A DNA stretch of 35,451 nucleotides from Catajapyx aquilonaris (taxonomy: Eukaryota). Every line of letters starts with the position of its first letter. The first letter of the stretch is position 1. Location: positions 1 through 35,451 of the forward strand of contig JYFJ02004030.1 in NCBI GenBank assembly GCA_000934665.2, in the 5' to 3' direction. Under the pieces are notes generated by a model. It was given only the letters and a program-made list of their open reading frames with translations, was not told the DNA's origin and did not search any database. Below are positions 371-27,386 of the stretch, in pieces. The position numbers and the translations under genes are program-made.

Positions 371-3300
371 CTTAAGTGGAGTACCACGATACCAAGGTAT
401 AACTACTGCATCCTCCAATAGTGCAATATTAACCATTTCAGGGACATGCTCTTTGGAGTTGGCCAGGGTCACTGCATGCTTCACAGTTTCTTCAAACTTT
501 GGAGCATTGTTGACAATGTCCCAGTCAATATCCTTGGAATCCCCTAGGAACACAAGATGTCAGTGAAGACACTATTAGCTCTGCAGGAAAATGACAAGTA
601 CCTTTCAGAGGAACAATAAGACCTCCTTCACTGGTCTCATCATGTACATCGAATCTCAGCATCGGGTGTGTCATGCCCAACAATGTGTGGAAAAGGTAAT
701 TGTGGAATGTGCCTAATAAGGTCACTTCTTTCTTGTCCAGGACTTGATAAGGTTCTGACATTGCTTCCACTGTTACCCACACCATGCCGTACTTGGAGTA
801 CAGAGGAAATTTACACACCTAAATAGAAATTCTTTAACTAGGAAGAGCATATAGATACAGAAGAAATTGAAAAAAGGTGTTCGTAAATTACCTTAGGCAA
901 TTTGATGGCACACAACATTCCAAATGTGTTCCTGCTCATCTGGGGAGTCACCGTCTTCAGATCCCACTCTGACACAGCCTCCATTTTGAGGACATGTAAA
1001 TACATTTCCTTCCCAACTATCGGCCATGATCTTAAATATGCTTCTGGCGTAGCAATCTTGTAGAACTGCCTCCTCTTCTTGGTACCCACCTTGGGCTCGC
1101 TTGGGAGTGTCTGATCCTCTGGAGGCTCAACCCAATCATCTGGCTCCTCCTTAGGCTTCCTCCCAACTGGAAGAAGATGGGCCTCATCCAACTCCCCAGC
1201 ATCATACAGGACTTTACAGGCCTCCATGTAAACCGATTTCTTGGCTAAACCCACAGTTGGCATTGGAAGGCCTGTGATGTCCTCTCGAACTGGTGAATTA
1301 ATGGGCAAGCGCAGAGTGGCTTGAAACCTGGGTTGGTCTGATCCATGGTGCACATACCAGCAGAGAGGCGACAGGAAACTAAAGCGGTCCTGAGGGAGCA
1401 TGCTGCAGTACCTGATCAACAGCAAGAAATAAATGCAATTATGTTGGTGCAAAAGAATACTCAAATGTACTTACATATGAACAAGTGAGATGGCAGCAGT
1501 GTGGGCAATCATGGGTGCTCTTTCCTCTTTCCTTGGTTGGAAAGGAGGGAGCAACAGATCACCTTCTCTCTGATCTGACTCTTCATCTGGGGTCACAAAT
1601 TTGCACGGTGACCCAGCCTTGAGAACATTATAAAGAGTTTCTTCTATTTTCTTGAAGCTGTCAAGCTTCTTTCTGATCTCATCTTCTTTATATTCTGAAG
1701 TTAAAAGCACATAGCGTCCTTCTCGTTTCCTTGCTCTTCCCATTGATTGAACATATGAAGGGAATGATTGAGGAGGATCAAATCTGAGCACTAAATTACA
1801 CTTCGGTATATCTATCCCTTCTTCTAAGACACTTGTGGTGACAATGAGGTTGGATTCACCCGAACGAAAGCGCTCCATAGCTGCTTTCTGGCGCTTTACA
1901 TTAAACCTGGAAACCAAATTCTCATTTGGGTTTCCTTCGCTTGTACCCACCACAAACTGGGGTGAAATAAAGGAATACTCTGGCAACTCATTCCTCACAT
2001 CCTGCATGGAAGAAAAGGCTTCGTGGAATGAAATGTTTACGTACTATCACTAAAAAATAGCACGACCTTACCATAAGGAAATGGCTCAAAACCTGAGCAG
2101 TTATGCGCTCTTCGATAAAGATAAGCCCACATAGGCGATTGTCATTCTTCTCTTTGTCATTCCCTCTTCCATTCTTCTTCCAAGGGGATGTACCCACTAT
2201 CTGCTCAGCCTCTCTGTATCTAAAAAGAGTGACTGTTAGCTTCGTCTACAGTATAGACACATTAAAGTCAGGAGCTGACCAATGTCCATACCTGGAAAGT
2301 ATTCCCAGCATGTGCTTCACCTTAGGTTTGAGGAATCTACTCATCCTTTCTGCTGGTGAACACTGTGATAGCAATATGTCCAATCTGCTATGTATACAAT
2401 GCATCAAAGTCCTCACCAGAGAGTAGAACACCTCCTTTTTTTCTGTGCATATACGAATCTCCTTCTCCAAACGCACAATGATCAGTAAGGCAGCAATATT
2501 TGCACAGTACAAACCCATCTCGGATATTATGGACTGCATTGCACCTAAGAAGCTGCAATGGAAACACCTCTGCCATTATTATTTCTATTGAAATACATCG
2601 TCTTACAACCTTACCTGGTCAACGTTTTTAGTGGACGATGTATGATAGGAGATAGTAATATTCCATTGACCTTAGGTATTCTCTCTCTCTTGCTCATGGT
2701 ACTCTCCGCCCAAACAATCACATTTCTGGTCTCGGAAAGTTCCTGTTCTAGTCTTTCAATTAAACTAACAGTATCATGATCAAGGGTGTTGTCTGGACCA
2801 AACACGTCAAATTCTTCTGTTGGGTTGGTAGCATATTGTTCAACAACTGTGTGGTCATATGTGGCAGCCTGACTGCACATAGTGTGCTCCAGTGCTCGGA
2901 CCTTTTTAGCCACATTTGGAACTTTAACATTACTATTTATCAGTGTGGCAGTGAGGCCTAGTACTTGAGGAACATCCTGTCCTTGCTCATGTGCCTTCCT
3001 TAGATCATCCATGGCCACCCTCATGGGGTGGTCCCCCACTGCATGGTGACACTCATCCACTACGAGAAGTGCGACATCATTCCAGTGGATGTAGCTATGA
3101 TGAAGCATCTGTACAAAGACCTGAGGTGTCAGAGCCAAAACCTGGAAACATCATGTACTTGTAACAAAGCAACATATTACTGCCATAATTCTTATGAAAC
3201 CTTTAATAGTGAAGACATGATTGTCACGCAACATAATTAAAATGTGAAAATGAGCTCAATAGGAAACACATGGAATTCCGATTTTGAGCGCCTGCAGCGG

Positions 3301-3992
3301 CCAAACGCCATGGTAGATTTTCTTCGGCCTTCAGACAATTGACTTTGAAATCAAGATCTATCAACTGACCAAGTTTCATCCAAATCCATCTGGCACAACT
3401 TTACACGTAAGGACCCCACCATGTCCTTTCAAGACACAATTAAATAATAATTTACGCTAACCTCATGTTGTTCCATTTCTCTTTGCCATGTGTCATCGTC
3501 CCAGAGATCAACTTGTGCCTCTCCTGTGTAGCAAGCAACATCGAGGTTACTATTCTGCTGTATGTACTTACTCTGCTGATGCACCAATGGGACCGTCACT
3601 GCCAAAAAAAATATTTTCTTTTGATCCTTCCCTTTTGATCCGCTTCAAATGAAAAGATAAATCATTATTTTCGATAGGATGAAGACTTTCCAATCATTTT
3701 TATCTTATTCAAAATGCCAGTATAGTAGAAAAGAACTCACAGTTTCGTAGCAACATGCTTTATCAGCTGCAAGGCAATGAATGTTTTTCCTGAGCCAGTT
3801 GGCAGGAAAATCACTGTGTTCTGTTTCTTGGCACACTCCAACAGTGCAATCTGTCACAACATATAAAAATGATTGTAAATGTGTAGCACAATAACAGCCA
3901 AATAATTTCAAAATGAATATTCTGCTTACTTGATAATCCCGTGGTTCAAATAACGGAAATAAGACATCCTTACTCCCGTCTGCGCCGAGGGC
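371..3992 (-). CDS. Dcr-2: Dicer-2-like endoribonuclease, copy A (partial: helicase, DUF283, platform, start of PAZ; continues beyond the left window edge)
   Basis: Hand-spliced GT-AG exons: 3992-3930, 3850-3741, 3642-3462, 3141-2615, 2552-2292, 2219-2072, 2001-1475, 1411-892, 818-602, 543-371; phases are compatible and no stops occur. Motifs: FEPRDYQ, Walker [50 protein letters not shown]283 [34 protein letters not shown]. The first visible exon starts at an acceptor (ttttaag|GCC), so the ATG lies in an unidentified upstream exon. Confidence 0.9.
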
Positions 3993-5020
3993 CTTAAAAT
4001 AGATACATTAGGTGATGTCATCATGTGGAAATGAGGTAATGACAGGAAAAATAAGGGGGGAAATCATAACTTCAATCATGCTTTCCAGTGCTAGAGCGAC
4101 TCTAACGGTTTTGCAGATACGGCTTTTTCCCATGAGACGGCAGAGCAATAAAACGGTACCGCTACTGATTTTCAATAGATAACTCAGTGAATATGTTCAA
4201 CAATGCAACCTCGAGCTCCATATCCTCACGAAACCTTACAGGATCACTGGTATTACATAGCAACAATGAATAGTCACCTGACAGTTCGAATCATTCGAAT
4301 AACGAGGTTCAATGTGCCGGCCCGCAGTATGATTTTCATCAAACGTTTTCAGAGCACCAGCAGTTAAATCATCAACGTTGTACTCTAAAACAAAAAGAGA
4401 AAGCCGGTAAATACACTTGAGGTAAAATGAAGTAAAGCTACTGACCAGTCATGATCGCGTGAGTGTCTTGATTGCTGCTGAGTATGTGAGGTAGCCTGGC
4501 CTTTTTAATGCTGTATATGCATATCGGTCGGGTATCGGCGACTCACGAGTAGATAAGATTATCTTTCCTTGATTGCAATATCATATTTTACGTCTCAACA
4601 CAGAGTGCAATAATTGCTAACCGTACCCACAAGTTAAAAAAGCAGTATTATATTTAGAAACAAACTATGGATTATTTTATGCAAAAAATATAAAAATATA
4701 AACAAACTATGTAAGTAACATGTCTGACAAGTTCTATGAATTCAGTGGTTTTTTTAATTGAGAAAAAAAATTGCAGAAGGAAATGAAATCTTTCTTTGAT
4801 TTGCCATAAGTAGCCTAAAATAATAATGTTACAAAGTTATTTATATGCAGCTTGGCATGATGAATGTCCGGCCTTATTTTTGGTGTCACTTTCATAACCT
4901 AAAAACTGTTCTTTGATTCAGTCACGGGGACTGATCGCTTTGGTGAAAGCCCAGTGAAATTCATTGGTGTTTTATGACTAATATTCTATGTCTCCAAACT
5001 TACAATAATATCATTATTGT

Positions 5021-5971: not shown

Positions 5972-8900
5972 CTATTTTTTGAGATTCCTCAAAGCCAACT
6001 TTGCAGCTGCAGCTGTGGCTCTCTGCTTTCCTCTTCCTAGGCCATGAAACATCTGGTCCTTTCCTCCAATCTTGACACAGATGCGGACCACATCAAAGCC
6101 CTCTTTTTCAAACTCGTCATGAGCAACTGGCCTGCAAAAGTAAATGTTATGTCCACTCTTATGTATGCGTACTACATAGAGATGGACTAGTAGCAATATG
6201 ATATTAGTTCTCACCTGATGTCCAATCTGTGAGGATATCGCTCATGCAGTTCTCTGAGTGGTGACATGGGCACATTCCTTGTGAACTCAGTTATCTCTCT
6301 GTTCATCAAGGATTTGAAGACTCCCCACACCTTATTGAGGGACATCCCACTGTCCAGATATATTGCTCCAGCCAGAGACTCAAAGAGGTCTCCAAGCACC
6401 TTGGGTACTTCTATCTCGCCCGCAATGTCCTCGTCCTCACCTAGAAGCTCAAACTGAAAAAATGACATAAGGTCCACACTGAGACATACCGGTATGTGTA
6501 AAATAATTGCATCAATTCCATCAAAACGTTTTTAACAAAATATAATTATTTCCATTTGTCATAACTTCATCTGCAGCTTCATGCATGAGAAGCTCATGAA
6601 GTACTACTTACATGACCTGAAACTTTATGACCGTTTTCTTCCTGGTGAAGCACAAATCTGTCAATGACTGTCTGAAGTTGAGGTGAAGAGTGTCGCAAAT
6701 ATTTGTGGAGTCCCTCTCGCACAGCTATGGAGGCAAATGTAATGTTGTTCACCAGGGCAGAACGAAGGTCAGTCATCTGCCCAGGGGTCAGATTGGGGCC
6801 ATCCTCGTAAATGTGACGAGTAATCAAGTAATCTGTGTCAGAATGAAATAATTGATATTACATCACCTGGGAAATGAATAATCATTCGTGATGTATACTC
6901 GTACATACCTAGAACAGCATCACCCAAAAATTCCAGCCTCTGGTAGCAATCTGTAATCCGGTTCTGGAAGAACGATGCATGAGTAAAAGCTTGAAGTAAA
7001 AGGCTGACATCTTTGAACTTGTAGCCAATTCGTTTCTCAAGCCTATCCACTCCAAAGATGTAACTTTCGATTTCATCATCCATGTCAATTCCCATATTGT
7101 GGTAGTTAACAACAGCTGTTGGAAGTGGGTGGTGCAATGAGATCTCATCTCCTTCAAGACCCCTGTCCCTCATGCCAAGCCAGGACAGAAAGTGGATGGC
7201 AGCATCATCTCCACATCCAAGGAGATGTGCTCCTATCATGGCTTCCACACAATCAGCCACACTCTTATCCGAGACACTATGATGATGGAAGTAGCTAGTG
7301 AAGCCATTGACTTTGCAGGTATCAACTTCCTTTGGTGTCTCCCCAGTAATATTTTCTACTACACAATCCACTAGGTAACGAAGCTGCTTAGGGTCGAATT
7401 CAAACAGTTCTTCAGCAGTATACTCTTGAAGTGTGGTGTAATTTAAACCAAGTTCAATGAGGATGTCTTCCAGGGCTACTGGAGGCTAATAAATGAGAGA
7501 AACAAATTCGCAACAACTCTGCATTTTGCAAGTGTCAACAGTCCAAAAACAAAATAACAACACTCTAGTTCAAGAAAGAAAAATGTTGCCTTACCTTGAA
7601 TCCAGGTGGTGCACAAAAGTTCCTTGGCTCAAATGGATGGGAATTAATATATCCAGGTAATCCCTTCATCTTCCCTAGCTTATACAAAATCTTGTTATTG
7701 ATGAGTCGCATCCTGCGAGTGCTGAGCTTTCCTTCATCATCGCTCTTGTAGGCGCAGAAAAGGTGGACTGACACTGCGAATTTGAGGAATGAATCCCCTA
7801 CCATTTCTAGTCGCTCCAAGTCAAATCCATCGTTGCAGGCAGCCAATGTCAGAGCCTTTAGTAAGGAAGAGAGCTCAATGTCATGGCAGTGAATAGACCT
7901 AATTTGTGTGTGTCTCATGTTGTCAAGCATGTTGCGCTTCTTTTCCGGGGGTATGTAATGGTCTGCATTGCACTCATCATTTCTGGATGCCGATACAGGC
8001 TTAAAGGTGACTGAATTATGGAAAAGCTCAACGTCAGACAGAGTAACAGTGAAGATGCAGTCTTCAGGATCTACAATGACTTTGAACATGTCAAATGCCT
8101 GTCCATGATAATCTGTCACATGCACTGCGTCATCATCATCTGCAATAGGAAAAATAAATGTTTAGGAATATTAAGACTGTCAACACGACATGCCAGAAAA
8201 TTCTAAAAACAGTAGAAAAATATCACCCATTTATATGTAGTTAATAAACCAACTAGCCTGATACTATTTCACCATCCTCCAGCGTCTGCTCCTGATCACC
8301 ACCACTTGAAACCACACTGGTCCTAGTTCCATCAGCATTATCACAATTTCCTGCGGTCGTGATGGGACCATAAGACAAGGCTTTCCAGTCAGGTTTCCCT
8401 CTATTGTGTTCAAATCCAAGTGACGAGTACATATCCCCGGCCAGAAGAAGCTGTCTGTAGCGATGAAGAATGGAAGGGATGTGTAGGGCCTGAACTAGAA
8501 AGGAAGCAGGCATTGGATGGACACAACAGAGCTCAGGAACCAGGTGCTCCTGAAATTTGTCACGGTGCAACATTCGCCGTGATTCCTTATTGTGAGGGCC
8601 AGTCCTGGAATGATAACAAGGCAGAAGTGATAAAAGCAGTATAGCAAAAATGATGTAACAACATCCCAATAAACCTTTGAACATAATTATTTCAGGTTCA
8701 ACAGTAGGAAAACTAGAGTTAGCTTACTGGTGAACTAGTAAGTTAACATGGAATGATCCCTGTGATCCAATTTGCTTCACTTCAATCAATGGCTGGTCCT
8801 GGTGCTGCACGTCGAGCTTGTATTTCTCTTTGTAGTAAGCCTTGTAAGTGGCATATGTCTCTCCAGAGGGGAATGGGGAGGAAGGAGTAATATCACTACA

Positions 8901-11900
8901 GTTCTCCACAATGCTGTAGTACTGTAAATAATATTCATTTCATGTCATAAGGATCAGGCATTAAATAGTAGCAATTTAGTGTTACTTAAGTCTGAATATA
9001 TTTCGCTACTGAAATAAGTCAATTATCAATTTGATGACCCTTAATATAAATGTAAGTAATGGCGCAATGTATCTGCTAAAATAATGACAATTCAGTTCTT
9101 CAACAAATTAAGTGTAAATTTACATTTGCAGTTTTAAATTAAACATGTAAAATTAATCAGGTGGTCATATATATTTTATTCCATATCAAAATATGACCCT
9201 TTAGCAGTATGACCCATATAACCATTATTTAAGTTGCTGTAAAAATACACAATACAGGCTAGCCAAATTCCATCAAAATAAGACCATTGATATCGGACTA
9301 TTTGAGGAACAATAATTTTGTCAGACAGAAAAATTACTGTAATGTGAGGTATTTTCATATTTGCAACAGCTTCACTAGTATGCAAATAAGTTCCATATAC
9401 CTATTATCGACTGAGAAACCTGCTAAAAATAATTCTTTCAATTTAACCTAGGCAAAATTACTATCAAAACTCGTCAAATAAGTGCACCATTGCTGCCTCA
9501 CCTTAAGTGGAGTACCACGGTACCAAGGTATTACTACTGCATCCTCCGAGAGAGCAGTATCAATCATTTCAGGGACGTGCTCTTTGGAATTGCCCAAGGT
9601 CACTGCATGCTCCACCGTTTCTTCAAACTTTGGAGCATTGTTGACAATGTCCCAGTCAATATCCTTGGAATCCCCTAGGAACACAAGATGTTAGAGAAGA
9701 CACTATTAGCTCTGCATGAAAATGACAAGTACCTTTCAGAGGAACAATAAGACCTCCTTCACTGGTCTCATCATGTACATCGAATCTCAGCATCGGGTGT
9801 GTCATGCCCAACAATGTGTGGAAAAGGTACTTGTGGAATTTGCCTAATAAGGTCACTTCTTTCTTGTCCAGGACTTGATAAGGTTCTGACATTGCTTCCA
9901 CTGTTACCCACACCATGCCGTACTTGGAGTACAGAGGAAATTTACACACCTACATAAAAATTAGAATTAAGCATAAAGAATAAATGGAACAAAAATGTTT
10001 GTAAAATACCTTAGGCAATTTTATGGCACACAGCATTCCAAATATGTTCTTGCTCATCTGGGGAGTCAACATCCTCAGATCCCACTCTGACACAGCCTCC
10101 ATTTTGAAGACATGTAAATACATTTCCTTCCCAACTATCGGCCATGATCTTAAATATGCTTCTGGCGTAGCAATCTTGTAGAACTGCCTCCTCTTCTTGG
10201 TACCCACCTTGGGCTCGCTTGGGAGAGTCAGATCCTCTGGAGGCTCAACCCAATCATCTGGCTCCTCCTTAGGCTTCCTCCCAACTGGAAGAAGATGGGC
10301 CTCATCCAACTCCCCAACATCATACAGCACTTTACAGGCTTCCAAGTAAACCGATCTCTTGGCTAAGACCACAGATGGCATTGGAAGCCCTGCGATGTCC
10401 TCTCGAACTGGTGAATTAATGGGCAAACGCAGAGTGGCTTGGAATCTGGTATTGTCTGATTCACGGTCCACATACCAGCAGAGAGGCGACAGGAAACTAA
10501 AGCGGTCCTGAGGGAGCATGCTGCAGTACCTGCAGTAAGAAATAAATGCAATTAAGTTGGTGCAAAAGAATACTCAAGTGTACGCTACGTACATATGAAC
10601 CAGTGAGATGGCATCAGTTTGAGTAATCTTGGGTGCTCCTTCTGCTTTGCTTGGCTGGAAGTGAGGTAGCAACCTCTCAGCATCACCATGATCAGACTCT
10701 TCATCTGTGGTCACAAATCTGCATGCTGACCCCTCCTTGAGAGCATTCCGAAGAATCTCTTCTATTTTTTTGAAGATGTCAAGCTTCTCTCTGATCTCAT
10801 CTTCATTAGATTCGGATGTTAATAGTACATAGCACCCTCCTCGTTTCCTTGCTCTTCCCATTGATTGGATATAGGAAGTAAATGTTTGAGGAGGATCAAA
10901 TCTAAGCACTAAATTACACTTCGGTATATCTATCCCTTCTTCTAAGACACTTGTAGTAACAATGAGGTTGGATTCACCAGAACGAAAGCGGTCCACAGCA
11001 GCTCTCTGACGTTTTGCATTAAACTTGGAAAGCAAATTCTCATTTGGGTTGCCCTGGTTTCCCACCACAAACTGGGGTGAAATAAATGAATATTCTGGCA
11101 TTTTCTCCTTCACATCCTGCATGTGAAAAAACAGTTATGTTAGTTTAATGAAAAAAAACACATATCAATAAAAAATAGTAAGTGCTCACCATAAGGAAAT
11201 GGCATATAACCTCAGCTGTTATACGTTCTTTAACAAAGATAAGCCCACAGAGGCGATTGTCACTTTCCTCTGTGTTATTACCTCTTACATGGTTCTTCCA
11301 AGGGGATGTATCCACCGTCTGCTCAGCCTCTCTGTACCTACAAAGAGTGACTGTTAATGACACATTAAAGTCAGGAGCTGACCAATGTCCATACCTGGAA
11401 AGTATTCCCAGCATGTGCTTCACCTTAGGTTTGACGAATCTACTCATCCTTTCTACTGGTGAGCACTGTGATAGCAATATGTCCAATCTGCAATGTATAC
11501 AATGCATCAAAGTCCTCACCAGAGAGTAGAACACCTTCTTTTTTTCTGTGCATATGCGAATCTCCTTCTCCAAACGCACAATGATCAGTAAGGCAGCAAT
11601 ATTTGCACAGTACAAGCCCATCTCGGATATTATGGACTGCAATGCACCTAAGAAGCTGCAATGGGAAGCCATTATTATTTCCATTGAAATACTTTATCTT
11701 ATTACCTTACCTGGTCAACGTTTTTAGTGGACGATGTATGATAGGAGATAGTAATATTCCATTGACCTTAGGTATTCTCTCTCTCTTGCTCATGGTACTC
11801 TCCCCCCAAACAATCACATTTTTGGTCTCTGAAAGTTCCTGTTCTAGTTCTTCAATTAAACTAACAGTATCATGATCAAGGGTGTTGTCTGGACCAAACA

Positions 11901-12973
11901 CTTCAAATTCTTCACTTGGGTTGGTAGCATATTTTTCAACAACTGTATGGTCATACGTCACAGCCTGACTGCCCATAGTGATTTCCAGTTTTCGGACCTG
12001 ATTAGCCACATTTTCAACCTTAACATTACGATTTATCAGTGTGGCAGTCAGGCCTAGTACTTGAGGAACCTCCTGCCCTTGCGCACATGCCTCCTTTCTG
12101 TCTTCCATGGCCACTCTCATTGGGTGGTCCTTCACTGCATGATGACACTCATCCACTATGAGAAGGGCCACATTTTTCCAGTGGATGTAGCTATGGTGAA
12201 GCATCTGAACGAAGATCTCAGGTGTCATAGCCAAAACCTAAAATTCATTTCGGATGTATTAGGCAGATATTGTATCCCTGCTTTTTAGTAAGAACTAAGA
12301 ACAGACAAGTTCCTAAATATTTCAAGACGTAATAATTGCAAAAAATTTAACTTGCCTCATGATGGCCCGTTTCTTGTTGCCACGTGACTTTGTCCCAGTG
12401 ATCAACCTGTCTGTCTCCAGTGTAGCAAGCAACATCAAGATTAATATTCTGCTGTATGTACTTGCTCTGCTGCTGGACCAATGGGACAGTCACAGCCAAG
12501 AAAACTATTTTCTTCTGATCCTTCCCCTTTGGTCCACTTCAAATAAAAGATAAAAAATAATCAACATTGTCGTTTGCACTTTCCAATAATTTTTGACCTT
12601 ATTGCAAAAGGGACTTAACTACACTTACAGTTTAGTAGCAACATGCTTGATGAGCTGTAGGGCAATAAATGTTTTTCCAGAGCCAGTGGGCAAGCAGATC
12701 ACTGTGTTCTGCTTCTTGGCAAACTCCAACAACGCAATCTGTCAGCATATAAAAATGCATGTAAATAAGTAGCACTACAATAGTAAATGATTATTCTGCT
12801 TACTTGATAATCCCGAGTCTCGAATAACACATCCTTAAGAGCCTGTAAATGACCATGTAAAATTTAAACTCACAGTTGCAGTATGTAAAATATTCATTTG
12901 GCTTTGTCTCTGGTGGAATTTCTGTTAGACTAGCCACCCAGGGGCAAATACACAAAATGACCCATACCGCCAT
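5972..12973 (-). CDS. Dcr-2: Dicer-2-like endoribonuclease, copy B (complete, ~1660 aa)
   Basis: Exons: putative ATG GCG micro-exon 12973-12968 (uncertain), 12842-12804, 12738-12629, 12536-12356, 12237-11711, 11655-11395, 11337-11190, 11116-10593, 10529-10010, 9949-9733, 9674-9502, 8921-8728, 8604-8258, 8139-7595, 7485-6909, 6832-6612, 6453-6215, 6131-5972. Without the micro-exon the total is 4983 nt, in frame, ending TAG. Domains: DExD/H helicase ([16 protein letters not shown]), DUF283, PAZ (YKAYYKEKY..DQPLIEV, HLVPELC), RNase IIIa ([22 protein letters not shown]), RNase IIIb ([21 protein letters not shown]), C-terminal dsRBD. The intact helicase, short RNase IIIa insertion and overall length favour Dcr-2 over Dcr-1. 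Confidence 0.93.
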
Positions 12974-15418: not shown

Positions 15419-16578
15419 ACATATCATATAACGAAAGTGGCTGGATGCTGGCAGCTGGTGGGAACCATTTATGCTTTAGGAGTTTAGGTAGACCCTGTTT
15501 GTCATCATACATGGGAAGTACATGTCAATTTTCATTGAGAACTGTACAATAATTAAAAATAAGTTCTTGAGCAATGTTTGGGTTTCCATGCGAGAATCAT
15601 CCTGTACAATAATTGACACGTGATACGAACAAGTTATCCCAAGTTGGTGGCTCGACAGTCTCAGAATTTGATATTTAAAAATCGTGTGCTTATACACACA
15701 CATGAGCTGTTGCTAAAATCGAAATTAGAGCCAACCAGTTGAAAATCCCTAGGAGATATGGCAACGTCTTTCGGCAACAATGGAACCGGACTGACAATAT
15801 ATTTCAGGTGGAGTTATTGTTGTAACCCAATGATCATATATATCGAAAGAACGGGAATGAAATGAGGAATATTGTGGTGGCAACAGTTTTAACCTAGAAC
15901 GCAAAATAACAATTATAAACAAATTCTCATTATTGTTCAAAAATGGCACATTTCAGATGGTCCAATGTCACTGTTAAACACATGTTAGGAGTGTGAAATT
16001 AATATGGTAGATACATTGCCATACACATGGTACTTACTACTGTGGAAGGAAAACATTACAGGTCAAGCAGTCTTGGAAATAAAGAAAATCCTGAAATTCC
16101 ATTTTTCTGTAAGTTGGTCATATCTTGGAGGTCATTTTTTCTGGGTCGATTTTAAAGTTACATGTGTTGAAAGAATAGTCTTTTTGTGCTTGATTTATAG
16201 ATATATAAGAACGGTTCAGTCCCCCTGAGCGGTTCACCCCCATATCATTAAATACAGCAGCGCCAAATAACGTAGAGTAGGCGTACACGAGTATTTTAAA
16301 ATGTTCTGGTGTACCTCGCAGGGGGACTAGATTAAAACTGCTGCCGTCACAATATATTAGTGATGTACAGTAATTGCGTAACTTCTGTTACACGTCAAAC
16401 GAGGTGAGATTGTGCCAGGAGGGGTGAGATTGTGCCGCGCATTTTTGGACAACAGTGACAGCAGACGTAGCGAATTCACTGCACGTCTGAATATCAAATT
16501 TTTCAGATGTTTAATTTTTATTATGTTGCAGGAAATTACTGCTGAACTTAATCTAAATTTTGTGTTTATTTGAAGGCA

Positions 16579-19500
16579 ATGGATTCAGATGGTAGTAAGG
16601 ATAATATGTTATTCGAGACTCGGGATTATCAAGTAAGCAGAACATTCCTTTACATTATTTTGCTGCTTTTGTGCTACAAATTTACACTCAATTTTTATAT
16701 GCTGACAGATTGCACTGTTTGAGTTTGCCAAGAAACAGAACACAGTGATTTTCCTGCCAACTGGCTCTGGAAAAACATTGATTGCCTTGCAGCTGATAAA
16801 GCATGTTGCTACGAAACTGTGAGTTCTTTTCTACTATACTGTCACCAATAATGTAATGATAATAATCATCTGCCCATTTTGAATAAGGTAAAAATGATTG
16901 GAAAGTCTTCATCCTATCGAAAATAATCACTTATCTTTTATTTGAAGCGGACCAAAAGGGAAGGATCAAAAGAAAATAGTTTTCTTGGCAGTGACGGTCC
17001 CATTGGTGCAACAGCAGAGGAAGTACATAGAGGAGAATAGTAACCTTGATGTTGCTTGCTACACAGGAGATACACCAGTTGATCTCTGGGATGAGGACAC
17101 ATGGCAAACAGAATGGGACCAACATGAGGTAAGATTAATTTATTTACAATTATTGTGCCTTGAAATTTTTAGAAACTTGTCTGTTAGACTGCAAAATACT
17201 GTATACGGTCAAAGGGCTGCTCAGTTTCAGTTTTTTAGAATTTAAATTGTCCAAAGAAAGCCGTGTAAATCTTAAATAAGCTCTACCATTAGTGTTTGGC
17301 AATGTATTTTTCGAGTCACATATTGTTTACTAAAACTCGCAATGAACAATTTACTTTAAGATAGCGCCATACGTAAGTGTGTGTACCATGCGGAAAACTT
17401 TCAAAGTGGGATATATTATAATGGGATAGTTAACTCATCAAGTTCATTACATATGTATATATGTCAGTGATTGTCCACCAAAAAGGCCTGTTTGGCCCAT
17501 AAAGGGGTCAATTAAAAAAATAAATAATAATAATAATAAAATGTCAGTGATTAAGAAGATAATTATCGCTAAAAATTGGGCATCATCTACTAGTGCCATT
17601 TAAATTTAAATTATAATTTGTGATATTTTAAACCTTGGTAATAGTGCATTGATGAGTACTACTTTTATAGGTAAATGTCACAATTATTGTGTATTTTGTC
17701 GGTTTTTACTATTTGCTTGGGTTTGATAGTGACAATTTTTTTCCACGCTGAATATGTTTGTCAGAAGTTTATGATATATCCTGCTTTATTATGTTATGTT
17801 TCCAGGTTTTGGCTCTGACACCTCAGGTCTTTGTACAGATGCTTCATCATAGCTACATCCACTGGAATGATGTCGCACTTCTCGTAGTGGATGAGTGTCA
17901 CCATGCAGTGGGGGACCACCCCATGAGGGTGGCCATGGATGATCTAAGGAAGGCATATGAGCAAGGACAGGATGTTCCTCAAGTACTAGGCCTCACTGCC
18001 ACACTGATAAATAGTAATGTTAACGTTCAAAATGTGGCTAATGAGGTCCGAGCACTGGAGCACACTATGTGCAGTCAGGCTGTCACATATGACCATACGG
18101 CTATTGAACAATATGCCACCAATCCAAAGGAAGAATTGGAAATGTTTACGACAGCCAACACCCTTGATGAAAATATTGTTAGTGTCACAAAGGATATAAA
18201 TCAGGAACTTGTAGTGACCAGAGGGTGGATTGCTTGGCTGGAGATTGCCATGCGCAGGAGAGAGCAACTTCCTATAGTGAGTGGCACATTACTAACTCCG
18301 GTCAAGAAGTGCTTACTGAAAAAGTTGTCCAGGTAAGATCCTGAGGCCTAATGCATTTCAATTGAAACATTTTTAGTTATGTTTTATTGGAAAGAGAGTG
18401 TACATCATGTCCTACATAATTCAGTAGTGGCTACATGATAACTTGGGAACTCCTGCCTCAAGTTATCATGTGGAGCTGTAATAAAAGATTATGGCAAGGA
18501 TGTGTGGGTCCTGGTCCTGCAGCTTAGAGTAACATAGATGACAGTACCTTCCAATTGCAGCCTGGTGGGTTCAATGCAGTCCATAATATCAGAGATGGGC
18601 TTGTACTGTGCTGATGTTGCTGCATTACTGATCATTGTGCGTTTGGAGAAGGAAATTCACATGTGCAAAAAAGATTATCAGGAGATGGCCTACCGTCAGG
18701 TACAGACTATGATGCATTGTATTCATGCCAGGTTGGGCAACTTGCTATCGCAGTGCTCACCAGCAGAGAGGATGACAAAGTATGTCAAACCTAAGGTGAA
18801 GCGCATGATGGAGATACTTTCCAGGTATGGGTACGCCGCAGCTGTTGTTTGGTCAGCTCTTGAAGTTGTTTTTTGTCTGTCCTGGTGTATAAAAGACCAA
18901 CAGTGTAGCAAGCACTCTTATGTAGGTACCGAGAGGCTGAGCGGATGGTGTATAAGACCAAGCATGTAAAAGGGAATGGCAAAGAGGAAAATGATGGTCG
19001 CCTCTGTGGGCTTATATTTGTTAAAACACGCATAACTGCTCAGGTTCTGAGCTACTTCCTTTTGGTGAGCACATACTATTTTTCATTGCTAATACATGGA
19101 TTCTTTATTCAACTAAGGCTCTTTCTTCCATGCAGGATGTGAGTGAGAAGTTGCCCGAGTATTCATTTATTTCACCCCACTTTGTGGTGGGTACAAACCA
19201 GGGAAAGCCAAATGAGAATTTGATTTCCAGGTTTAATGCAAAATGCCAGAGAGATGCTGTAGAGCACTTTCGCTCTGGTGAATACAACCTCATTGTCACC
19301 ACAAGTGTCTTAGAAGAAGGGATAGATATACCAATGTGTAATTTTGTGCTCAGATATGACCCCCCAAGGAACTTTACATCCTATGTTCAGTCAATGGGAA
19401 GAGCCAGAAAATTGGGAGGGCGCTATGTGCTTTTAACCTCAGAGTCTGAAAAAGATGAGATTAGAAAGAGAATTGAAACTTTCAAGAAAATACAAGAGAA

Positions 19501-22500
19501 TCTTCGGACTGTTCTCAGGGAACGGTCAGCATGCAGATTTCTGGCCATAAATGAAGACTGTGCCGAAGAGTCTGATCATGGAGAAGCTGAGAGCTTGCTT
19601 CCTCCCTTCCAGCCAAGAAAAGAAGAAGGAGCACCCAAGATTACCCAAACTGATGCGGTATCACTGGTTCATATGTAAGTACTGTGCATTTGAGGATTTG
19701 CACCAACTTAACAGTTACAGTACTGATTAGGTCAGCACTTTAACAATTGCATTTATTTCTTACTGTTTATCAGGTACTGCAGCATGCTCCCTCAGGACCG
19801 CTTTAGTTTCCTGTCCCCTCTCTGCTGGTATGTGAACCATGGACCAGACCATACCAGGTTCCAAGCCATTCTACGCTTGCCCATTAATTCACCGGTTCAA
19901 GAGGACATCGCAGGTCTTCCAATGCCATCTGTGGTCTTAGCCAAGAGATCGGTTTACTTGGAAGCCTGTAAAGTGCTGTACGATGTTGGGGAGTTGGATG
20001 AGACCCATCTTCTTCCAGTTGGGAGGAAGCCTAAGGAGGAGCCAGATGATTGGGTTGAGCCTCCAGAGAATCAGACTCTCCCAAGCGAGCCCAAGGTGGG
20101 TACCAAGAAGAGGAGGCAGTTCTACAAGATTGCTACCCCAAAAGCATATTTAAGATCATGGCCGATAGTTGGGAAGGAAATGTATTTACATGTCCTCAAA
20201 ATGGAGGCTGTGTCAGAGTGGGATCTGAGGATGTTGACTCCCCAGATGAGCAAGAACATATTTGGAATGTTGTGTGCCATCAAATTGCCTAAGGTATTTT
20301 ACGAACATTTTTGTTCCATTAATTTTGTATGTTCTTCCTAGTTAACGCTCATTTTTATGTAGGTGTGTAAATTTCCTCTGTACTCCAAGTACGGCATGGT
20401 GTGGGTAACAGTGGAAGCAATGTCAGAACCTTATCAAGTCCTGGACAAGAAAGAAGTGACCTTATTAGGCAAATTCCACAAGTACCTTTTCCACACATTG
20501 TTGGGCATGACACACCCGATGCTGAGATTCGATGTACATGATGAGACCAGTGAAGGAGGTCTTATTGTTCCTCTGAAAGGTACTTGTCATTTTCCTGCAG
20601 AGCTAATAGTGTCTTCACTAACATCTTGTGTTCCTAGGGAATTCCAAGGATGTTGACTGGGACATTGTCGACAATGCTCCAAAGTTTGAAGAAACGGTGG
20701 AGCATGCAGTGACCCTGGCCAACTCCAGAGAGTATGTTCCTGAAATGATTGATGCTGCACGTTTGGAGGATTCAGTAGTGATACCTTGGTACTGCGGTAC
20801 TCCACTTAAGGTGAGGCAGAAGTGCTGTACTTGTGTTAGGAGTTTTGACAGTTATTTTGCTTCTAAAGGTTAAATAGTAAGAATACATAATGGCATGTTT
20901 TGCAGTTAGAAATCAAGTTAGAAGTACATCTATCATATTAAAAGCCTTGCGGTGTTGGACCAAGCCTTATGATTGGTCCGCTGCATATATTGTTACCGCC
21001 TCCTCCCCATTGGCCTGCGTTCTACTTATGCGCAATGGGGTGTAAACAACTCCCCTGTTGGGTTGCCGGGGAAACTGTCCATTCCTTCTCTGCATATTGT
21101 TGCCCAGTCGGGACTACTGTGAAGTTGTTTACAGAGACAGTTCCCTTTTTGGAACAACAGACACAGGACAGACATGTTCTCACTTCTCACTAAAGGGGCC
21201 ATTCGAAGACTGCTGGAGGGTTAACCTTACACCCTCCCCCGGTGATGTGGTGCTCCGAATAGGTGCCACAGGCCTAGAAAAGAGCAACCAAAGAGAGAGG
21301 TGTTCTGTACGAGATGGGTCGGTGAACGAACGCAAGCGGGTGCCCAATTTTATTACAGGAATTACATTACAAACTGTATTCCGACCTGTCATAAAATTGG
21401 CCATCTGCTTGCGTTCGTTCGCCGACCCATCTATAGGCCTCGGGCCTAGGAAAATGCAGAGGAGCGAGGGTTTTCCTATAGTATCTGTTTATTTTCATAC
21501 TATAGTGAACCTGTTGCCAAAATTAAAATAACATGTACTACCAATTACAGTTTTCTGTCTAGCATTATTGTGTCTGAAGTAGGCAGATATCACTGGTTAT
21601 ATATTGATGGGATTTTCTCATGGGTGGCTTGAAATGTGTATATTCGAGGCAACTATAATATTGGGTCAATATTATTGTTCTGATGGGTCATATTGAATAT
21701 GACAATGAAAGTTGATAATTTCCAACCATAGTTTATTTCCTGCATACTGTGACTATGTATTTTATTACAAGCTACTGTCCTGACATTTTGACAAAAATAA
21801 CTTCCAGACACAGTAGCTAAGCCGAAAGCCTCGTGTCAAATGACATTGTTTTAAAACATGCATAAGGTGTTGTTGAGTAATGTGCAGTACATTTTCCAGG
21901 AAGAAAAGGTGGGTTTGTTACAAGAGAATGGACAGTAATAGAACATTTCTGACTTATTCTTATTTAGAATCAGCGCCAATGAATGCATAATAGACAGCTA
22001 AAATCGTTCATGTAACAAAATCCTTGTTGACCAGTGTAATTTAATAAAAGAACAGCAATAATGATGTCATAATTATGTTTTGTGTAATAATAATAATAAT
22101 TATAGTATAATAATTTGTACCCCGTGCTAGAGCCGTGGGCCCTCTTAGGGGATACCACCATATTTTTTTATCTGGAACTCTTGCTTTCGTTTTTACTACT
22201 CGTATAAGGGGATGGGATAGGGACGGAAGGAAACGGCTGTGGCCTATAATTACGGACACGACCCCGGAATTTTCCTGGTGAGACCATGGGAAACCACAGA
22301 AAACCACGGTCAGGGTCGGCGGCCACTGGGATTCGAACCCAGGACCTCCCGATTAGCAGTCGGATACCATATCCCCTCCGCTACCACTGCTTCGGTTATG
22401 TTATGTGTATGCCCTACTATGAGGGAGTAGCCAGGAGTGGTCAGAAAGAGGTTTTGTCAATGTTGTTTCAATATTTGTCACTGCAACTGTCTGTTGACTG

Positions 22501-25500
22501 TTGAACCTTATACTCATCAATGATGGATGAAATCATATGAATAGTGGCCCTGAAGATGTGTAGGAATCAATAGATGCATTCTCTGGTAATAAAATCATGA
22601 ATATTGTATGTGTTATAATGAAAAGTGGAACATTATGCATTATTATTGTTCCACTTTCCACCTTTTGTTTAGGAACATCATATGTCAATATCCCCCTGGA
22701 ATTTTTTCCCAAATTACTACCACTTGCAGACAGTGATATTGACAATTATTGATAATGTGTATAATCAGCAGGTACATTTTCCGATGATGAAAATCACGTA
22801 TTTCTCAATAAAACAATGAATAATGAAAATGTATGGATAATATTATTCCACTTTTTCCATAAGAACAGCATATGTCAATATATTTTCTTCTGGGATTTTT
22901 TTTCTAGCATTATCACCTCTTGCAGATATTTGAAGTTAATGACACTTTATGTCCCATCAGTGTGTCCATACACCATTTCATTTATTTAACCTCCCTGCCT
23001 CATTCACGCAATGACACTATTTTTTTTAAGATTCGTTCAAGTCCTCTTATAAAGAGCAAGGATTGTTTTTTTGTGTCTCCTGAAAAGTAACATCTTTGGA
23101 AATAATCATGTGGTTTTTGCAAAAAAAGGCTTTAATTATTAAATACGCTTATCATAAAATGTGTCAAATAATTTTTTAGCTTTATTATTTTCTTAATTAT
23201 GGAGATGAAATTTTGCAGCACATTTTCCACATGGCAGATTTCATTCTCATACTATGAATATCTACGAAGTTCGCCTGTAACATGTACAAAATATAAAAGT
23301 TAAGTTTAAAGCCATTTTAATTTTTTTTTCATGTGTTTTGACAGTGGGGACAGAAAAATATTACATTGGAAAATCATTGGTAATATGTTGGGACATAACA
23401 GTGTAAAAATACGAAGTCAGATAATGCAGGAAATAAATTACACTGGGGAACACATTTTATACCCTTGAAGGTTAGACCCATTTTAGGGTATATCCTTGGG
23501 TATGTCTGACCAAGTGATCGATGAAATGTAAAAATAAATTTTAGTTACATTTTAGAGAAAACATAATTCCATAAACGTATTCTCCTGGTGTTTCTCTTTC
23601 TTTTGATAGAGATGTTCATTGGGTTTGAGCAATTCCACTAACCGCAAAAAAATTCTCCCAAAAAAAAGGCCTCATTTTCGGCCATTTTTCAAAGTTTCTC
23701 GAATGTTTCCCTCCCAATGGTACCGGTATTGCGTAATGTGGCTGAAACTTGATGTGCAGCATTATGGCATAATAAGTCTGTACATGTGTGATTATTTTCA
23801 CCAAGATCCGAGAAGATGTAAAAACGTTACGGCTCACTTGCTTCGGAAAGACCCCAAGTAAACTGGTCCCAACTTTAAAACGATATATCTCAATAACTAG
23901 AGCTGATGGAGCAAAACGGATGCCAGTTTTGGAATCAGCGCCACGGATATACCCTCAAATCGGTCTAACCTTCAAGGCACCAAGAAGAAAATTCAATATT
24001 GTTCCCCTGTGTTATGGTTGGGAAAAAAAAAACTTTCAATACCACAATCTATTTGACCCTAATTGATCCAAACATGCAATTTTTAAATTTGTAATGTATA
24101 AGTTCATTTGCCTGATAATGACATCAAAGGAATATTAATTACAGTACTACAGCGTTGTGGAAATCTGTGATGATGTTACTCCTTGCTCCCCATTCCCTGG
24201 GGAGACATATACCACTTACAACGATTATTTCAAAGAGAAATACAACATTGATGTGCAGCACCAAGACCAACCAATGGTTGAAGTGAAGCTAATTGGATCA
24301 CAGGGCTCATTCCCTGTTAACTTCTTAGTTCACCGGTAAGTCTTACTCTTGTTTGCCTACATTGGACCTGAAATATGTTCAAACTCTGTTACATCTGGTG
24401 ATGTGGAATTTTTTTCTATTCTGCTTTTTCGCTTCTGCCTTGTTATCTATCTAGGACTGGTAAGGATGGTCTGCCAGGCCATCACAATAAGGAAGCTGGG
24501 CGCATGTTGCACTATGCCCAGTGTCGGGAGCACCTGGTTCCTGAGCTTTGTTGTGTCCATCCAATGCCTGCTTCGTTCCTGGTTCAGGCCCTACACATCC
24601 CTTCCATTCTTCATCGCTACAGACAGCTTCTTCTGGCTGGGGATGTGTACTCTTTACTTGGATTTAAGCACAATAGAGGGAAATCTGACTGGAAACCCTT
24701 GTCTTATGGTCCCATCATGACCTCAGGAAATTGTGATAATGCTGATGGAACTATGACCAGCTTGGTTTCCAGTGATGGTGAACAGGAGCAGACACTGGAG
24801 AATGGTGAAGCATCATCAGGTCAGAAACATGATGGGTTTATTAACTGCTTTCAGAGAGGTGACATTTACAGTGCGCCAAGCATCTTTGCAGTGATACTAA
24901 AAATATTCTACTACAGTATGTCATGTTGACTGTCATCATATACTACTCTATACGTGCCTCATGATGTTTCTGAGCACCACTTTTTTTCTATTGCAGCTGT
25001 TGACCCAGTGAATGTGACAGATGCTCAAGAAGAGAAATTTGACATCCTCAAAGGCCTTGTAGACCCTGAATGCTGCCTCTTCAAGGCTACTCTGTCTGAT
25101 ATTGAGAATTTCCACAAGGCGGTGACCTCTATACATACATGTACTATTGGAAAGCATGATGAGTGCGATGCAGACCACTCCACACTCACAGAAAAGAAGC
25201 GCAACATGCTTGACAACATGAGACACACACAAATGAGGTCTCCTCACAGCCATGACATTGAGCTCACCTCCTTACTAAACGCTCTGACATTGGCTGCTTG
25301 TAACGACGGATTTGACTTGGAGCACCTAGAAATGGTGGGTGATTCATTCCTCAAATTCGCAGTGTCAGTCCACCTTTTCTGTGTCTACAAGAGCGATGAT
25401 GAAGGAAAGCTCAGCACTCGCAGGATGCGCCTAATCAGTAACAAGTTCTTGTATAAGCTGGGAAAGATGAAAGGATTGCCTGGATATATCAATTCCCACT

Positions 25501-27386
25501 CATTTGAGCCAAGGAACTTTTGTGCACCACCTGGATTCAAGGTGAGGCTTTATGTTTTTCTATTTATATTTCTTTTGAACCACCGCACCATTGTAATTTT
25601 GCTTATGGACAAAAGGCAATAATTGTTGACATTTGCAAAATGTGAAGTAGCACCATCATTGCTGCAAATTTTTACTGTATGCTGTTGTTTCTCTCTCTTT
25701 CATGTTAGCCTCCAGTAGCCATGGAAGTCATCCTTCTGGAACTGGGCTTAAATTATACCACACTTCAAGAGTATACTGCTGCAGAACTGGCTGGCTTGAA
25801 CCCTCAGCAGCTACGTTGTGTGATGGATTATGAGGTAGAAAGTATGGCTAAGGATACACCAAGGGCAGTTAAGACCAGCAATGTCAATGGCTTCACTAGA
25901 TACTTCCATCATCATAGTGTCTCGGATAAGAGTGTGGCTGATTGTGTGGAAGCCATGATAGGAGCACATCTCCTTGGATGTGGAGATGATGCTGCCATCC
26001 ACTTTCTGTCCTGGCTTGGCATGAGGGACAGGGGTCTTGAAGGAGAGGAGATCTCATTGCACCACACACTTCCAACAGCTGTTGTCAACTATCACAATAT
26101 GGGAATTGACATGGATGATGAGATTGGAAGTTACATCTTTGGAGTGGATAGGCTTGAGGAAAGAATTGGCTACAAGTTCAACGATGTCAGCTTCTTACTT
26201 CAAGCTTTTACTCACGCATCATTCTTCCAGAACCAGATTACAGACTGCTACCAGCGGCTGGAATTTTTGGGTGATGCTGTTCTAGGTATGTCAACTTATT
26301 AGCTAGTGCAATCATGATGCTTAATTGCAATGCAGTGATTTTGTTACATTTACAGAATAGATCATGACATGAATGACTATCACTGCCAACCTTATTTTCA
26401 TCATAAATGATTACGGTATGTATATCCCCGCAGTGTTGTAATATCCATTCTTTCGGTCTGACACAGATTACTTGATAACTCGTCACATTTACGAGGATGG
26501 CCCCCATCTGACCCCTGGGCAGCTAAGTGACCTTCGTTCTGCCCTGGTGAACAACATTACATTTGCCTCCATAGCTGTGCGAGAGGGACTCCACAAGTAC
26601 TTGCGACACTCTTCCCCTCAACTTCAGGCAGTCATTGACAGATTTGTTCTTCACCAGGAGGAGAATGGGCATGACGCTACAGATCACGTAAGTGCCATTT
26701 ATTTTGATGTTTTTCATGCATGAAGTTGCAAATGAAGATTGAAGCTATTTTTTGTTGTACAATTTATAACAATTTGAAAACCTTTGGTTAGTGATCCATG
26801 TCCTGGACCTGACATATTTTGATATTTATATTACTGCTCCGAATAACACTTGAAAGAAATAACACTTGCATCACTATACCGTGCTATAACGCTTTTTTAA
26901 AAAGTTTGAGCTTCTGGGTGAGGACGAGAACTTGGCTGGTGAGATAGAAGTACCAAAGGTTCTTGGAGACCTTTTTGAGTCATTGGCTGGCGCCATCTTT
27001 CTTGACTGTGGGATGTCCCTCAGCAAGGTGTGGGAAGTCATCAAATCCTTGATGGATAGGGAGATAACAAAGTTCACAAGGGAAGTACCCAAATCACCAT
27101 TCAGAGAACTGCACGAAAGTTATCCTAACAGTGTGTACATAAGGTGAGTACTAATATCCAATAGCTGTGAGTCCATTTCTCTCACCTGCAATGTCAATCG
27201 CCATTATGTCTGTGTGTTTTTAACAGGAGCATTGCTCATGACGAGTTTGAAGAAGAAGGCTTGGATGTGGTCTGCATATGTATTATGAATGGAGGAAAAG
27301 AGAGCTTTTTCTATGGCTTAGGAAGAGGAAAGCAGAGAGCCAAAGCTGCAGCGGCACATTTGGCCCTGAGGACACTCAAAAAATAG
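16579..27386 (+). CDS. Dcr-2: Dicer-2-like endoribonuclease, copy C (complete, 1673 aa)
   Basis: 17 GT-AG coding exons: 16579-16632, 16709-16818, 16948-17128, 17806-18332, 18561-18824, 18926-19064, 19136-19674, 19774-20293, 20363-20579, 20638-20810, 24145-24335, 24455-24819, 24997-25541, 25709-26285, 26467-26687, 26905-27143, 27227-27386. Total 5022 nt = 1673 aa plus TAG. Same domain order and intron positions as copy [59 protein letters not shown], dsRBD. Confidence 0.93.
17473..17540 (+). mobile_element. 68-bp retro-insertion with (TAA)n tail and 12-bp TSD in intron 3 of Dicer copy C
   Basis: ATGTCAGTGATT at 17461-17472 and 17541-17552 flanks a short sequence ending in an A-rich/(TAA)n run. 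Confidence 0.7.
21312..21432 (+). repeat. Inverted repeat, 48-bp arms with 25-nt spacer, in intron 10 of Dicer copy C
   Basis: Arms 21312-21359 and 21385-21432 match at 43/48 positions. Confidence 0.88.
22087..22395 (-). mobile_element. tRNA-derived SINE in intron 10 of Dicer copy C
   Basis: Minus strand shows an A-box-like TGGTAGCGGAGG, B-box GGTTCGAATCC, a central body (GGTTTTCTGTGGTTTCCC..CAGGAAAATTCCGGG..AGGCCACAGCCGTTTCCTTCC) resembling widespread invertebrate SINEs, and a (TTA)n tail. Near-perfect 14-bp TSD TTATGTT(T/A)TGTGTA at 22073-22086 and 22396-22409. Confidence 0.85.
22600..22945. repeat. Diverged ~200-bp tandem duplication in intron 10 of copy C
   Basis: TTCCACTTT..GAACA.CATATGTCAATAT..CTGG.ATTTTTT..CTTGCAGA at ~22649-22730 and ~22846-22927. 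Confidence 0.6.
23441..24011. mobile_element. Non-autonomous DNA transposon (MITE) with CAC...GTG termini and TTA TSD (Chapaev3- or PIF/Harbinger-like; superfamily uncertain)
   Basis: Termini CACTGGGGAACA / TGTTCCCCTGTG; subterminal CCTTGAAGGTTAGACC.ATTT.AGGGTATATCC present in inverted orientation at both ends; TTA at 23438-23440 and 24012-24014; interior similar to 34440-34760. Confidence 0.8.

Follow-up and report, generated by a model that had tools for sequence, protein, structure and literature searches.

The window analysed here, a contiguous stretch of 35,451 nucleotides from Catajapyx aquilonaris (NCBI GenBank assembly GCA_000934665.2, contig JYFJ02004030.1, positions 1 to 35,451 of the forward strand), harbors three paralogous Dicer genes, designated A and B (minus strand) and C (plus strand). 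Taken together, our analyses make it likely that these genes form a real, lineage-specific cluster of the Dicer-2 (Dcr-2) type, which arose through tandem and inverted duplication and whose copies have since diverged and undergone gene conversion. Dicer-2, which cuts viral double-stranded RNA into small silencing RNAs, stands at the head of antiviral RNA interference (RNAi) in arthropods, most of which have just one gene for it. The window is eukaryotic sequence with a G + C content of approximately 40% and contains no N.

A self-comparison of the window revealed that A and B are direct repeats, with 88.6% identity between 311-3143 and 9442-12239 (2843 aligned bases, introns included), and that C runs in the opposite orientation to both, with 80-85% identity. 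B and A are arranged head-to-tail, and C lies head-to-head with B at a distance of 3.7 kb; a preliminary description of the region, which had spoken of a tandem cluster, is therefore accurate for B and A, whereas C is inverted. The extent given there was recovered to the base, as 371 is the final base of exon 10 of A before its GT donor and 27384-27386 is the stop codon of C. Open reading frames (ORFs, taken from stop to stop) with Dicer domains were found at approximately 160-4000 (A) and 5970-12860 (B) on the minus strand and at approximately 16550-27390 (C) on the plus strand. When a Dicer profile made from 30 full-length relatives was run against the ORF pieces of the window (domain E < 0.01), 40 pieces matched, and all 40 were located inside A, B or C on the proper strand, which excludes chance and indicates that there are no additional Dicer fragments in the window. 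The regions upstream of A, B and C showed no detectable similarity to one another in a sensitive blastn comparison, and no common 5' exon or promoter was found in them.

Exon models were derived from a three-way DNA alignment of the loci combined with splice-site rules (GT/AG at homologous columns) and frame rules, and the position of the intron-12 donor in the models of B and C was set from a spliced contig of the public sequencing run X5. The resulting models are as follows.

Copy A, visible part, 371..4004, minus strand: exons 1-10, cut off in intron 10, with helicase, DUF283/dimerisation, platform and the start of PAZ.
Exons of A, minus strand: 3930-4004, 3741-3850, 3462-3642, 2615-3141, 2292-2552, 2072-2219, 1475-2001, 892-1411, 602-818, 371-543.
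Copy B, 5972..12861, minus strand: 17 exons, stop codon 5972-5974, 3' untranslated region (UTR) to at least 5723.
Exons 1-9 of B, minus strand: 12804-12861, 12629-12738, 12356-12536, 11711-12237, 11395-11655, 11190-11337, 10593-11116, 10010-10529, 9733-9949.
Exons 10-17 of B, minus strand: 9502-9674, 8728-8921, 8258-8604, 7595-8139, 6909-7485, 6612-6832, 6215-6453, 5972-6131.
Copy C, 16578..27386, plus strand: 17 exons, ATG at 16578, stop 27384-27386, 1673 aa.
Exons 1-9 of C, plus strand: 16578-16632, 16709-16818, 16948-17128, 17806-18332, 18561-18824, 18926-19064, 19136-19674, 19774-20293, 20363-20579.
Exons 10-17 of C, plus strand: 20638-20810, 24145-24335, 24455-24819, 24997-25541, 25709-26285, 26467-26687, 26905-27143, 27227-27386.

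The preliminary description had also claimed identical intron positions and phases, open frames and intact catalytic motifs, and these claims were borne out by the models. The phases agree throughout, each of the nine junctions of A matches those of B and C, and neither an internal stop nor a frameshift was found in the 913 codons of A, the 1666 of B or the 1673 of C. B and C have exons of equal length in 11 of 17 cases; five internal exons differ by 3, 9, 15, 3 and 18 bases, all multiples of three, and exon 1 of B has no defined 5' end. GT-AG introns account for 9/9 in A, 14/16 in B and 16/16 in C, with GC donors in B at introns 3 and 12 (12354-12355 and 8256-8257), where A and C have GT. The typical intron in these models measures 55-230 nt; intron 3, in comparison, has 118 nt in B, 320 nt in A and 677 nt in C, and intron 10 has 580 nt in B and 3334 nt in C.

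All three copies retain the ATPase motifs GSGKT (Walker A), DECH, TAT (motif III) and QSMGRAR (motif VI). The acidic motifs of both RNase III domains are intact in B and C (LEMVGDSF and ADCVEA in RNase IIIa; LEFLGDAV and the second motif in RNase IIIb) and align with the corresponding motifs of the solved human, mouse and fly Dicers; this result covers B and C, as the RNase III domains of A lie beyond the edge of the window. Pfam searches with the exon ORFs of B and C recovered DEAD/ResIII, Helicase_C, Dicer_dimer, Dicer_platform, PAZ, two Ribonuclease_3 domains and Dicer_dsRBD, and those with the exon ORFs of A recovered DEAD, Helicase_C, Dicer_dimer and Dicer_platform. The full Dicer-2 domain set is thus present in B and C, and A shows the part from the helicase to the platform, up to the end of the window; the remainder of A, and any further copies, would lie beyond it.

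Several elements were observed in and around the Dicer introns and the 3' end of B. Homology of intron 10 of A to intron 10 of B and C continues to approximately 307-311 and then gives way to an unrelated repeat of very high copy number at 1-310. This repeat, with an imperfect 81-nt tandem duplication (1-79 versus 82-161, 82%) and a G + C-rich stretch, belongs to the regions in which word depth in the DNA runs reaches approximately 8,000-17,000, compared with approximately 20-60 elsewhere; the range covers both high-copy repeats of the window. The second of these, at 5604-5668, is located in or beside the 3' UTR of B and recurs at 31408-31472 (95%). Intron 10 of C contains a tRNA-Ser(GCT)-like element at 22318-22390 on the minus strand (Rfam tRNA, 36.3 bits; ARAGORN), besides which the Rfam scan returned nothing, together with a 161-codon ORF without a Pfam match (21046-21531) and a repeat shared with 34369-34769 (75%). 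This long intron looks as if it has been enlarged by inserted elements.

The affiliation of the copies within the Dicer family was addressed by database searches and by phylogeny. The 207-aa ORF containing exon 8 of B served as query in an exhaustive HMMER search against 1.84 billion representative proteins, which returned 315 proteins at E <= 0.001; the best full-length match among them is 42% identical to the query, indicating that the representative library holds no close relative. The only closer entry among the matches listed, with 61% identity over 86 residues, has 652 aa, a length equal to that of AncD1D2, a reconstructed ancestral Dicer helicase. A word-index protein search with a Dicer exon against longer proteins gave no match, and the protein atlas placed a Dicer exon in generic Dicer_dimer clusters only.

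Trees were computed by FastTree from A, B and C together with 72 matches no shorter than 1300 aa, and by IQ-TREE under the LG+G4 model from 59 matches plus A, B and C. The three copies were monophyletic on a long branch (0.94 substitutions per site) in both trees and sister to a clade of 16 proteins, with an SH-like support of 1.0 in FastTree and an SH-aLRT of 100 in IQ-TREE. This clade contains P0046, P0083, P0090 and P0032, which are named in their sources as insect Dicer or Dicer-2; the named insect Dicers come from Bacillus rossius, Orussus, Hetaerina and Cimex. It also contains P0088, whose best solved match is Drosophila Dicer-2 (921 bits, versus 584 for human Dicer). The Dcr-1 representative P0006 and the vertebrate Dicer representative P0018 were placed outside the group formed by the copies and the Dicer-2 clade. 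The same sister group was obtained separately from the helicase, the DUF283-platform-PAZ and the RNase III columns (support 0.986-0.999), no tree or region grouped the copies with Dcr-1 or vertebrate Dicer, and the approximately unbiased (AU) test rejected two alternative topologies in which the copies and the Dicer-2 clade are apart (p = 0.031 and 0.024). Over the full length, phmmer ranked insect Dicer-2 first, narrowly, with 853-895 bits versus 794-872 for the best Dicer-1-type proteins. The copies are therefore very probably of the Dicer-2 type, as judged from both trees, the three regions and the AU test, and the fact that A, B and C are mutually closest relatives indicates a lineage-specific expansion; both assignments agree with those first proposed for the locus. 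The position of the copies outside all insect Dicer-2 points to a non-insect or early-branching lineage.

Several points weigh against this placement. Single RNase III and DUF283 exons favor human Dicer and Drosophila Dcr-1 over Drosophila Dcr-2 (96 versus 39 and 109 versus 49 bits), the rejection by the AU test is modest (p of only 0.02-0.03), and the trees, computed under simple models, included no named non-insect Dicer-2, with the best library relative of the 207-aa ORF only 42% identical to it. Long-branch attraction to the fast-evolving Dicer-2 clade under LG+G4 may also have contributed. An alternative hypothesis is accordingly that the copies are not Dicer-2 orthologues but fast-evolving duplicates of the Dicer-1 type, drawn to Dicer-2 by their long branch; besides the exon-level scores, it can draw on Dicer-1-type proteins such as P0031, which score near insect Dicer-2 over the full length. 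However, the placement is shared by both tree methods and by each of three independent protein regions, and the AU test rejects the separation from Dicer-2. The length of approximately 1670 aa without the long insert between PAZ and RNase IIIa (profile gap 1110-1317) is Dicer-2-like, and the ATPase motifs of the helicase are intact. We thus regard a Dicer-1-type origin as improbable.

Evidence on transcription and assembly came from public sequencing runs, whose contigs were compared over positions 1-20000: four DNA-type runs from one sample (2014), with approximately 90% of the sampled words, and run X5 from another study (2022), with 8%. Contigs of X5 matched B at 5723-6130 joined to 6214-6435 and at 7933-8139 joined to 8258-8393, and matched C at 17033-17126 joined to 17804-17954 and at 19390-19554, all with 0 mismatches. 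Three splice joints fall exactly at predicted introns, which are given here with the second GC-donor intron of B.

B intron 16, 6132..6214, minus strand: 83 nt, GT-AG; spliced out in an X5 contig, joint 6130->6214 (cut +1).
B intron 12, 8140..8257, minus strand: 118 nt, GC-AG, CAG/GCTAGT; spliced out in an X5 contig, joint 8139->8258 (ends CT..GC on the plus strand).
C intron 3, 17129..17805, plus strand: 677 nt, GT-AG; spliced out in an X5 contig, joint 17126->17804 (cut +2).
B intron 3, 12238..12355, minus strand: 118 nt, GC donor GAG/GCAAGT predicted from sequence only.

The three joints were seen in none of three DNA runs, so that X5 behaves as RNA; the kind of this run is not on record, a point that tempers the reading. 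The exact spliced contigs for B and C indicate that at least two copies are transcribed and correctly spliced, contrary to the possibility, raised at the outset, that only one copy might be expressed. The transcript of B extends to at least 5723, approximately 250 nt beyond the stop codon. X5 contigs within 1-20000 covered neither A nor the 5' ends of B and C, which has no bearing either way on expression.

Contigs of the DNA runs matched each copy exactly, at a similar depth of approximately 20-60 over all three. No DNA-run contig bridges two copies and the DNA runs may represent the assembled sample itself, so that the assembly is the basis for how the copies are ordered and oriented, which must be set against the proposed cluster. 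It might be argued from this that the three copies are an assembly artefact, either alleles or a single locus that was misjoined or over-expanded. Yet the copies differ by 11-20% in DNA, with copy-specific indels and with introns 3 and 10 of very different lengths, their upstream regions are unrelated, and copy-specific contigs were obtained from both DNA and RNA at similar depth over all copies; at 80-89% DNA identity they are far too divergent for the haplotype misassembly that had initially been considered. An artefact is therefore highly improbable. Separately, clustered alternative letters were observed in DNA-run contigs at 7067-7147 and 10108-10234 in copy B and at 13878-14128 in the spacer between B and C, some on all covering contigs and others on some only; they could be alleles, assembly differences or reads of further near-identical copies.

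At the protein level, A and B are 85.1% identical, A and C 77.9%, and B and C 79.0%. The corresponding dN/dS values are 0.33, 0.52 and 0.40, with dS of 0.23-0.28, and show, as judged from the substitution pattern, that the copies are under purifying selection. The relationships between the copies change along the gene. For exons 2-3 and intron 2, A is nearest to C (91-96%, versus 78-86% to B), and for exon 5 and intron 5 it is nearest to B (97-98%, versus 74-81% to C). All pairs are 99-100% identical in exon 9, 95-98% in intron 9 and 94-96% in exon 8. As the introns follow the same mosaic as the exons, gene conversion or unequal exchange, the inverted copy included, is indicated rather than selection on the protein. 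Two segments stand out in these comparisons.

Homogenised tract from exon 8 to intron 9: C 19774..20637 (plus strand), B 9675-10529, A 544-1411; dS <= 0.11, alignment codons 675-900.
Hypervariable Hel2i-like start: C 18127..18332 (plus strand), residues 223-291, B 11655-11916, A 2552-2820; defined by dN/dS of A and B versus C.

With domain borders that are our own estimates, the most constrained domain was RNase IIIb (dN/dS 0.17), and constraint was lowest in the linker that separates PAZ from RNase IIIa (0.84), in the insert of RNase IIIa (0.94) and in the Hel2i start, comprising the first approximately 70 residues after helicase motif III, for which dN/dS of A and B against C was 1.1-1.3. 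The ratio of nonsynonymous to synonymous differences (Nd:Sd) in this last segment exceeds that of the remaining gene (Fisher p = 0.0009). Positive selection was considered for it but is not supported, the dN/dS value being not significantly greater than 1 (p = 0.59). The segment is weakly conserved across all Dicers, and thus relaxed constraint accounts for the data no less well than adaptation. It corresponds, by a rough mapping through the alignment with P0088, to residues 220-280 (approximately) of Drosophila Dcr-2. A structural report describes a loop (257-271) of the Drosophila Dcr-2 Hel2i that enters the major groove of double-stranded RNA (dsRNA), and binding of the 5' phosphate (Lys310) and of part of the Loqs-PD tail by Hel2i (PMC9279154).

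The most serious difficulty concerns the 5' ends of A and B, which compare with that of C as follows.

C 5' end, 16575..16580, plus strand: ttgaag/GCA ATG, with the ATG 3 nt after the acceptor-like AG.
A 5' end, 3987..3992, minus strand: ttttaag/GCC CTC GGC, with CTC as the codon homologous to the ATG of C and 3992 as the first base of GCC.
B 5' end, 12837..12842, minus strand: tttacag/GCT CTT AAG, with CTT as the codon homologous to the ATG of C and 12842 as the first base of GCT.

The 5' end of C, which reads GCA ATG GAT and is preceded 11 codons upstream by an in-frame stop, carries the sole in-frame ATG among the 5' ends of the three copies, and only in C is a complete frame from start to stop recognisable (ATG at 16578, stop ending at 27386). 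Between the upstream in-frame stop, a few codons away, and the Walker A motif, no in-frame ATG was found in A or B; the second Met of C is replaced in B and A by Val (GTG or GTC), and B has in addition a 15-nt in-frame deletion relative to A directly after the CTT codon. A scan for ATG...GT phase-0 exons upstream of A and B yielded no convincing candidate and only weak donors (4-6 of 9). The completeness of copy B, claimed in the preliminary description, is thus not established, and the characterization of all three genes as apparently intact stands for frames and motifs but not for the start codons of A and B, so that the intactness of all three is unproven. Translation of A and B is likewise unproven, as there is neither an in-frame ATG nor a credible upstream exon, and this counts against a cluster of three working genes.

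These observations raise the possibility that only C works, with A and B being pseudogenes that are still transcribed, or copies without coding function, whose frames were kept open by conversion from C; the conversion tracts, some of which involve C, and the two non-canonical GC donors of B would be in keeping with it. However, A and B share the loss of the ATG and have nevertheless diverged from each other under constraint, with dS of 0.226 at a dN/dS of 0.33. Exons 1-3 of B differ from those of both other copies (A-B 83-86%, B-C 84-87%) and are still open. Neutral drift over half of the synonymous distance between A and B would be expected to leave approximately 13 stops in the 913 codons of A, which stayed open in 0 of 500 simulations, and approximately 28 stops in B. 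Furthermore, an AG followed by an in-frame GCN codon is conserved in A, B and C, and the GC-donor intron 12 of B is spliced correctly. The divergence under constraint, the drift simulation and the conserved AG/GCN argue that A and B are nevertheless read, and we consider it unlikely that C is the only working copy. The simplest reading of the 5' ends would be that the conserved AG is a real acceptor, at which a non-homologous, unannotated 5' exon or a spliced leader is joined and supplies A and B with their initiator AUG.

The most likely explanation for the locus as a whole, namely a lineage-specific cluster of Dicer-2-type genes, can be formulated as follows. An ancestral gene of 17 exons would have undergone one tandem and one inverted duplication, after which divergence of the copies was presumably mixed with gene conversion between them. 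The genome is probably that of an arthropod. The protein of a complete copy carries an ATP-using RIG-I-like helicase (Hel1-Hel2i-Hel2-pincer) together with DUF283, platform-PAZ, a pair of RNase III domains and a dsRBD at the C-terminus. By analogy with Drosophila Dcr-2, the ends of long dsRNA might be bound by the helicase or by platform-PAZ, and the RNA might be threaded with ATP and cut by the RNase IIIa/IIIb pair into small interfering RNA (siRNA) duplexes for antiviral defense and transposon silencing; the enzymatic activity of the copies and their siRNA/antiviral role are accordingly putative. The differences in substrate, siRNA length or tissue first proposed for the copies would be speculative. 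A bolder and rather doubtful hypothesis regards the cluster as an array of antiviral dsRNA sensors that is diversifying, in which the DUF283-platform core (exons 8-9) is kept alike by conversion, the Hel2i start diverges approximately neutrally between C and A/B, and the copies differ in the dsRNA ends they recognize, in their partners or in the viral suppressors they escape, with the AUG of A and B again coming from a non-homologous 5' exon or a spliced leader.

Downstream of C, an intronless ORF of 706 aa at 28400-30517 on the plus strand contains a Lig_chan domain (Pfam E = 1.1e-10), and its nearest protein-atlas clusters are arthropod ionotropic and glutamate receptor families (score 0.98), a lead towards an arthropod origin of the genome; the word-index search found no relative of it at E <= 1e-5. 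An acceptor-like ...aattacag precedes its ATG by 3 nt, an arrangement also seen in Dicer copy C. A second copy of the upstream region and first codons of this receptor ORF is found at 34871-35451 (85% identity to 27984-28579) and exits the window at its right end; its start is frameshifted relative to the first (LQEMAIVTIYLQ... and then a stop), and it is likely a degenerate tandem duplicate. An ORF of 160 codons without a Pfam match is located at 31566-32045 on the minus strand; it may resemble the C-terminal tail of the reverse transcriptases of non-long terminal repeat retrotransposons.

If the cluster is what it appears to be, its linked, diverged and still-recombining copies constitute a natural experiment on the parts of Dicer-2, in which the Hel2i start, the PAZ-RNase IIIa linker and the RNase IIIa insert are free to change and the DUF283-platform region and RNase IIIb are held constant. 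Should the copies differ in the recognition of dsRNA ends or in their cofactors, they would show an RNAi immune system in the course of widening its range, and such differences, if true, would also matter for the efficiency of RNAi in this species. The practical gain consists of corrected gene models, of at least two transcribed copies and of a defined question about the start codons of A and B.

Compared to known systems, the copies resemble Drosophila Dicer-2 (7w0a, 7v6b, 6bu9, among other solved structures) and the insect Dicer-2 clade in the order of domains (helicase with GSGKT/DECH/QSMGRAR, DUF283, platform, PAZ, RNase IIIa, RNase IIIb, dsRBD) and in length (1673 aa in C versus 1722 aa). 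Unlike Drosophila and insect Dicer-2, there are three copies instead of one, and two of them lack a recognisable start codon; scores of single exons against Drosophila Dcr-2, itself very derived, are low (39-59 bits). With Dicer-1 and vertebrate Dicer (8dfv, 5zak) they have the fold family in common, and the RNase III and DUF283 exons score best there; unlike those proteins, the copies have a separate placement in the trees and no long insert separating PAZ from RNase IIIa.

The closest parallels are the expansions known from other arthropods. Most of the arthropods studied are reported to have one Dicer 2, but the gene is duplicated in Daphnia (two copies) and present in five copies in Metaseiulus (PMC4833078), whereas a later count gave three copies for Metaseiulus occidentalis and two each for Varroa destructor, V. 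jacobsoni and Dermatophagoides pteronyssinus (PMC7659050). For insects, a survey of 100 transcriptomes reported Dicer2 in 80 and duplicates in none (PMC5521735). The initial statement that expansions are uncommon therefore applies to insects, but expansions had already been described in Daphnia and several mites. In the portions of these reports available to us, the latter are presented as copy numbers and trees, with no mention of tandem or inverted layout, conversion tracts or loss of the start codon. Given these precedents, a cluster of three copies is unusual but not new in kind, and it is like the known arthropod expansions in being a lineage-specific multiplication of the siRNA-producing Dicer, which in Daphnia and the mites is accompanied by a Dicer-1 that stays single.

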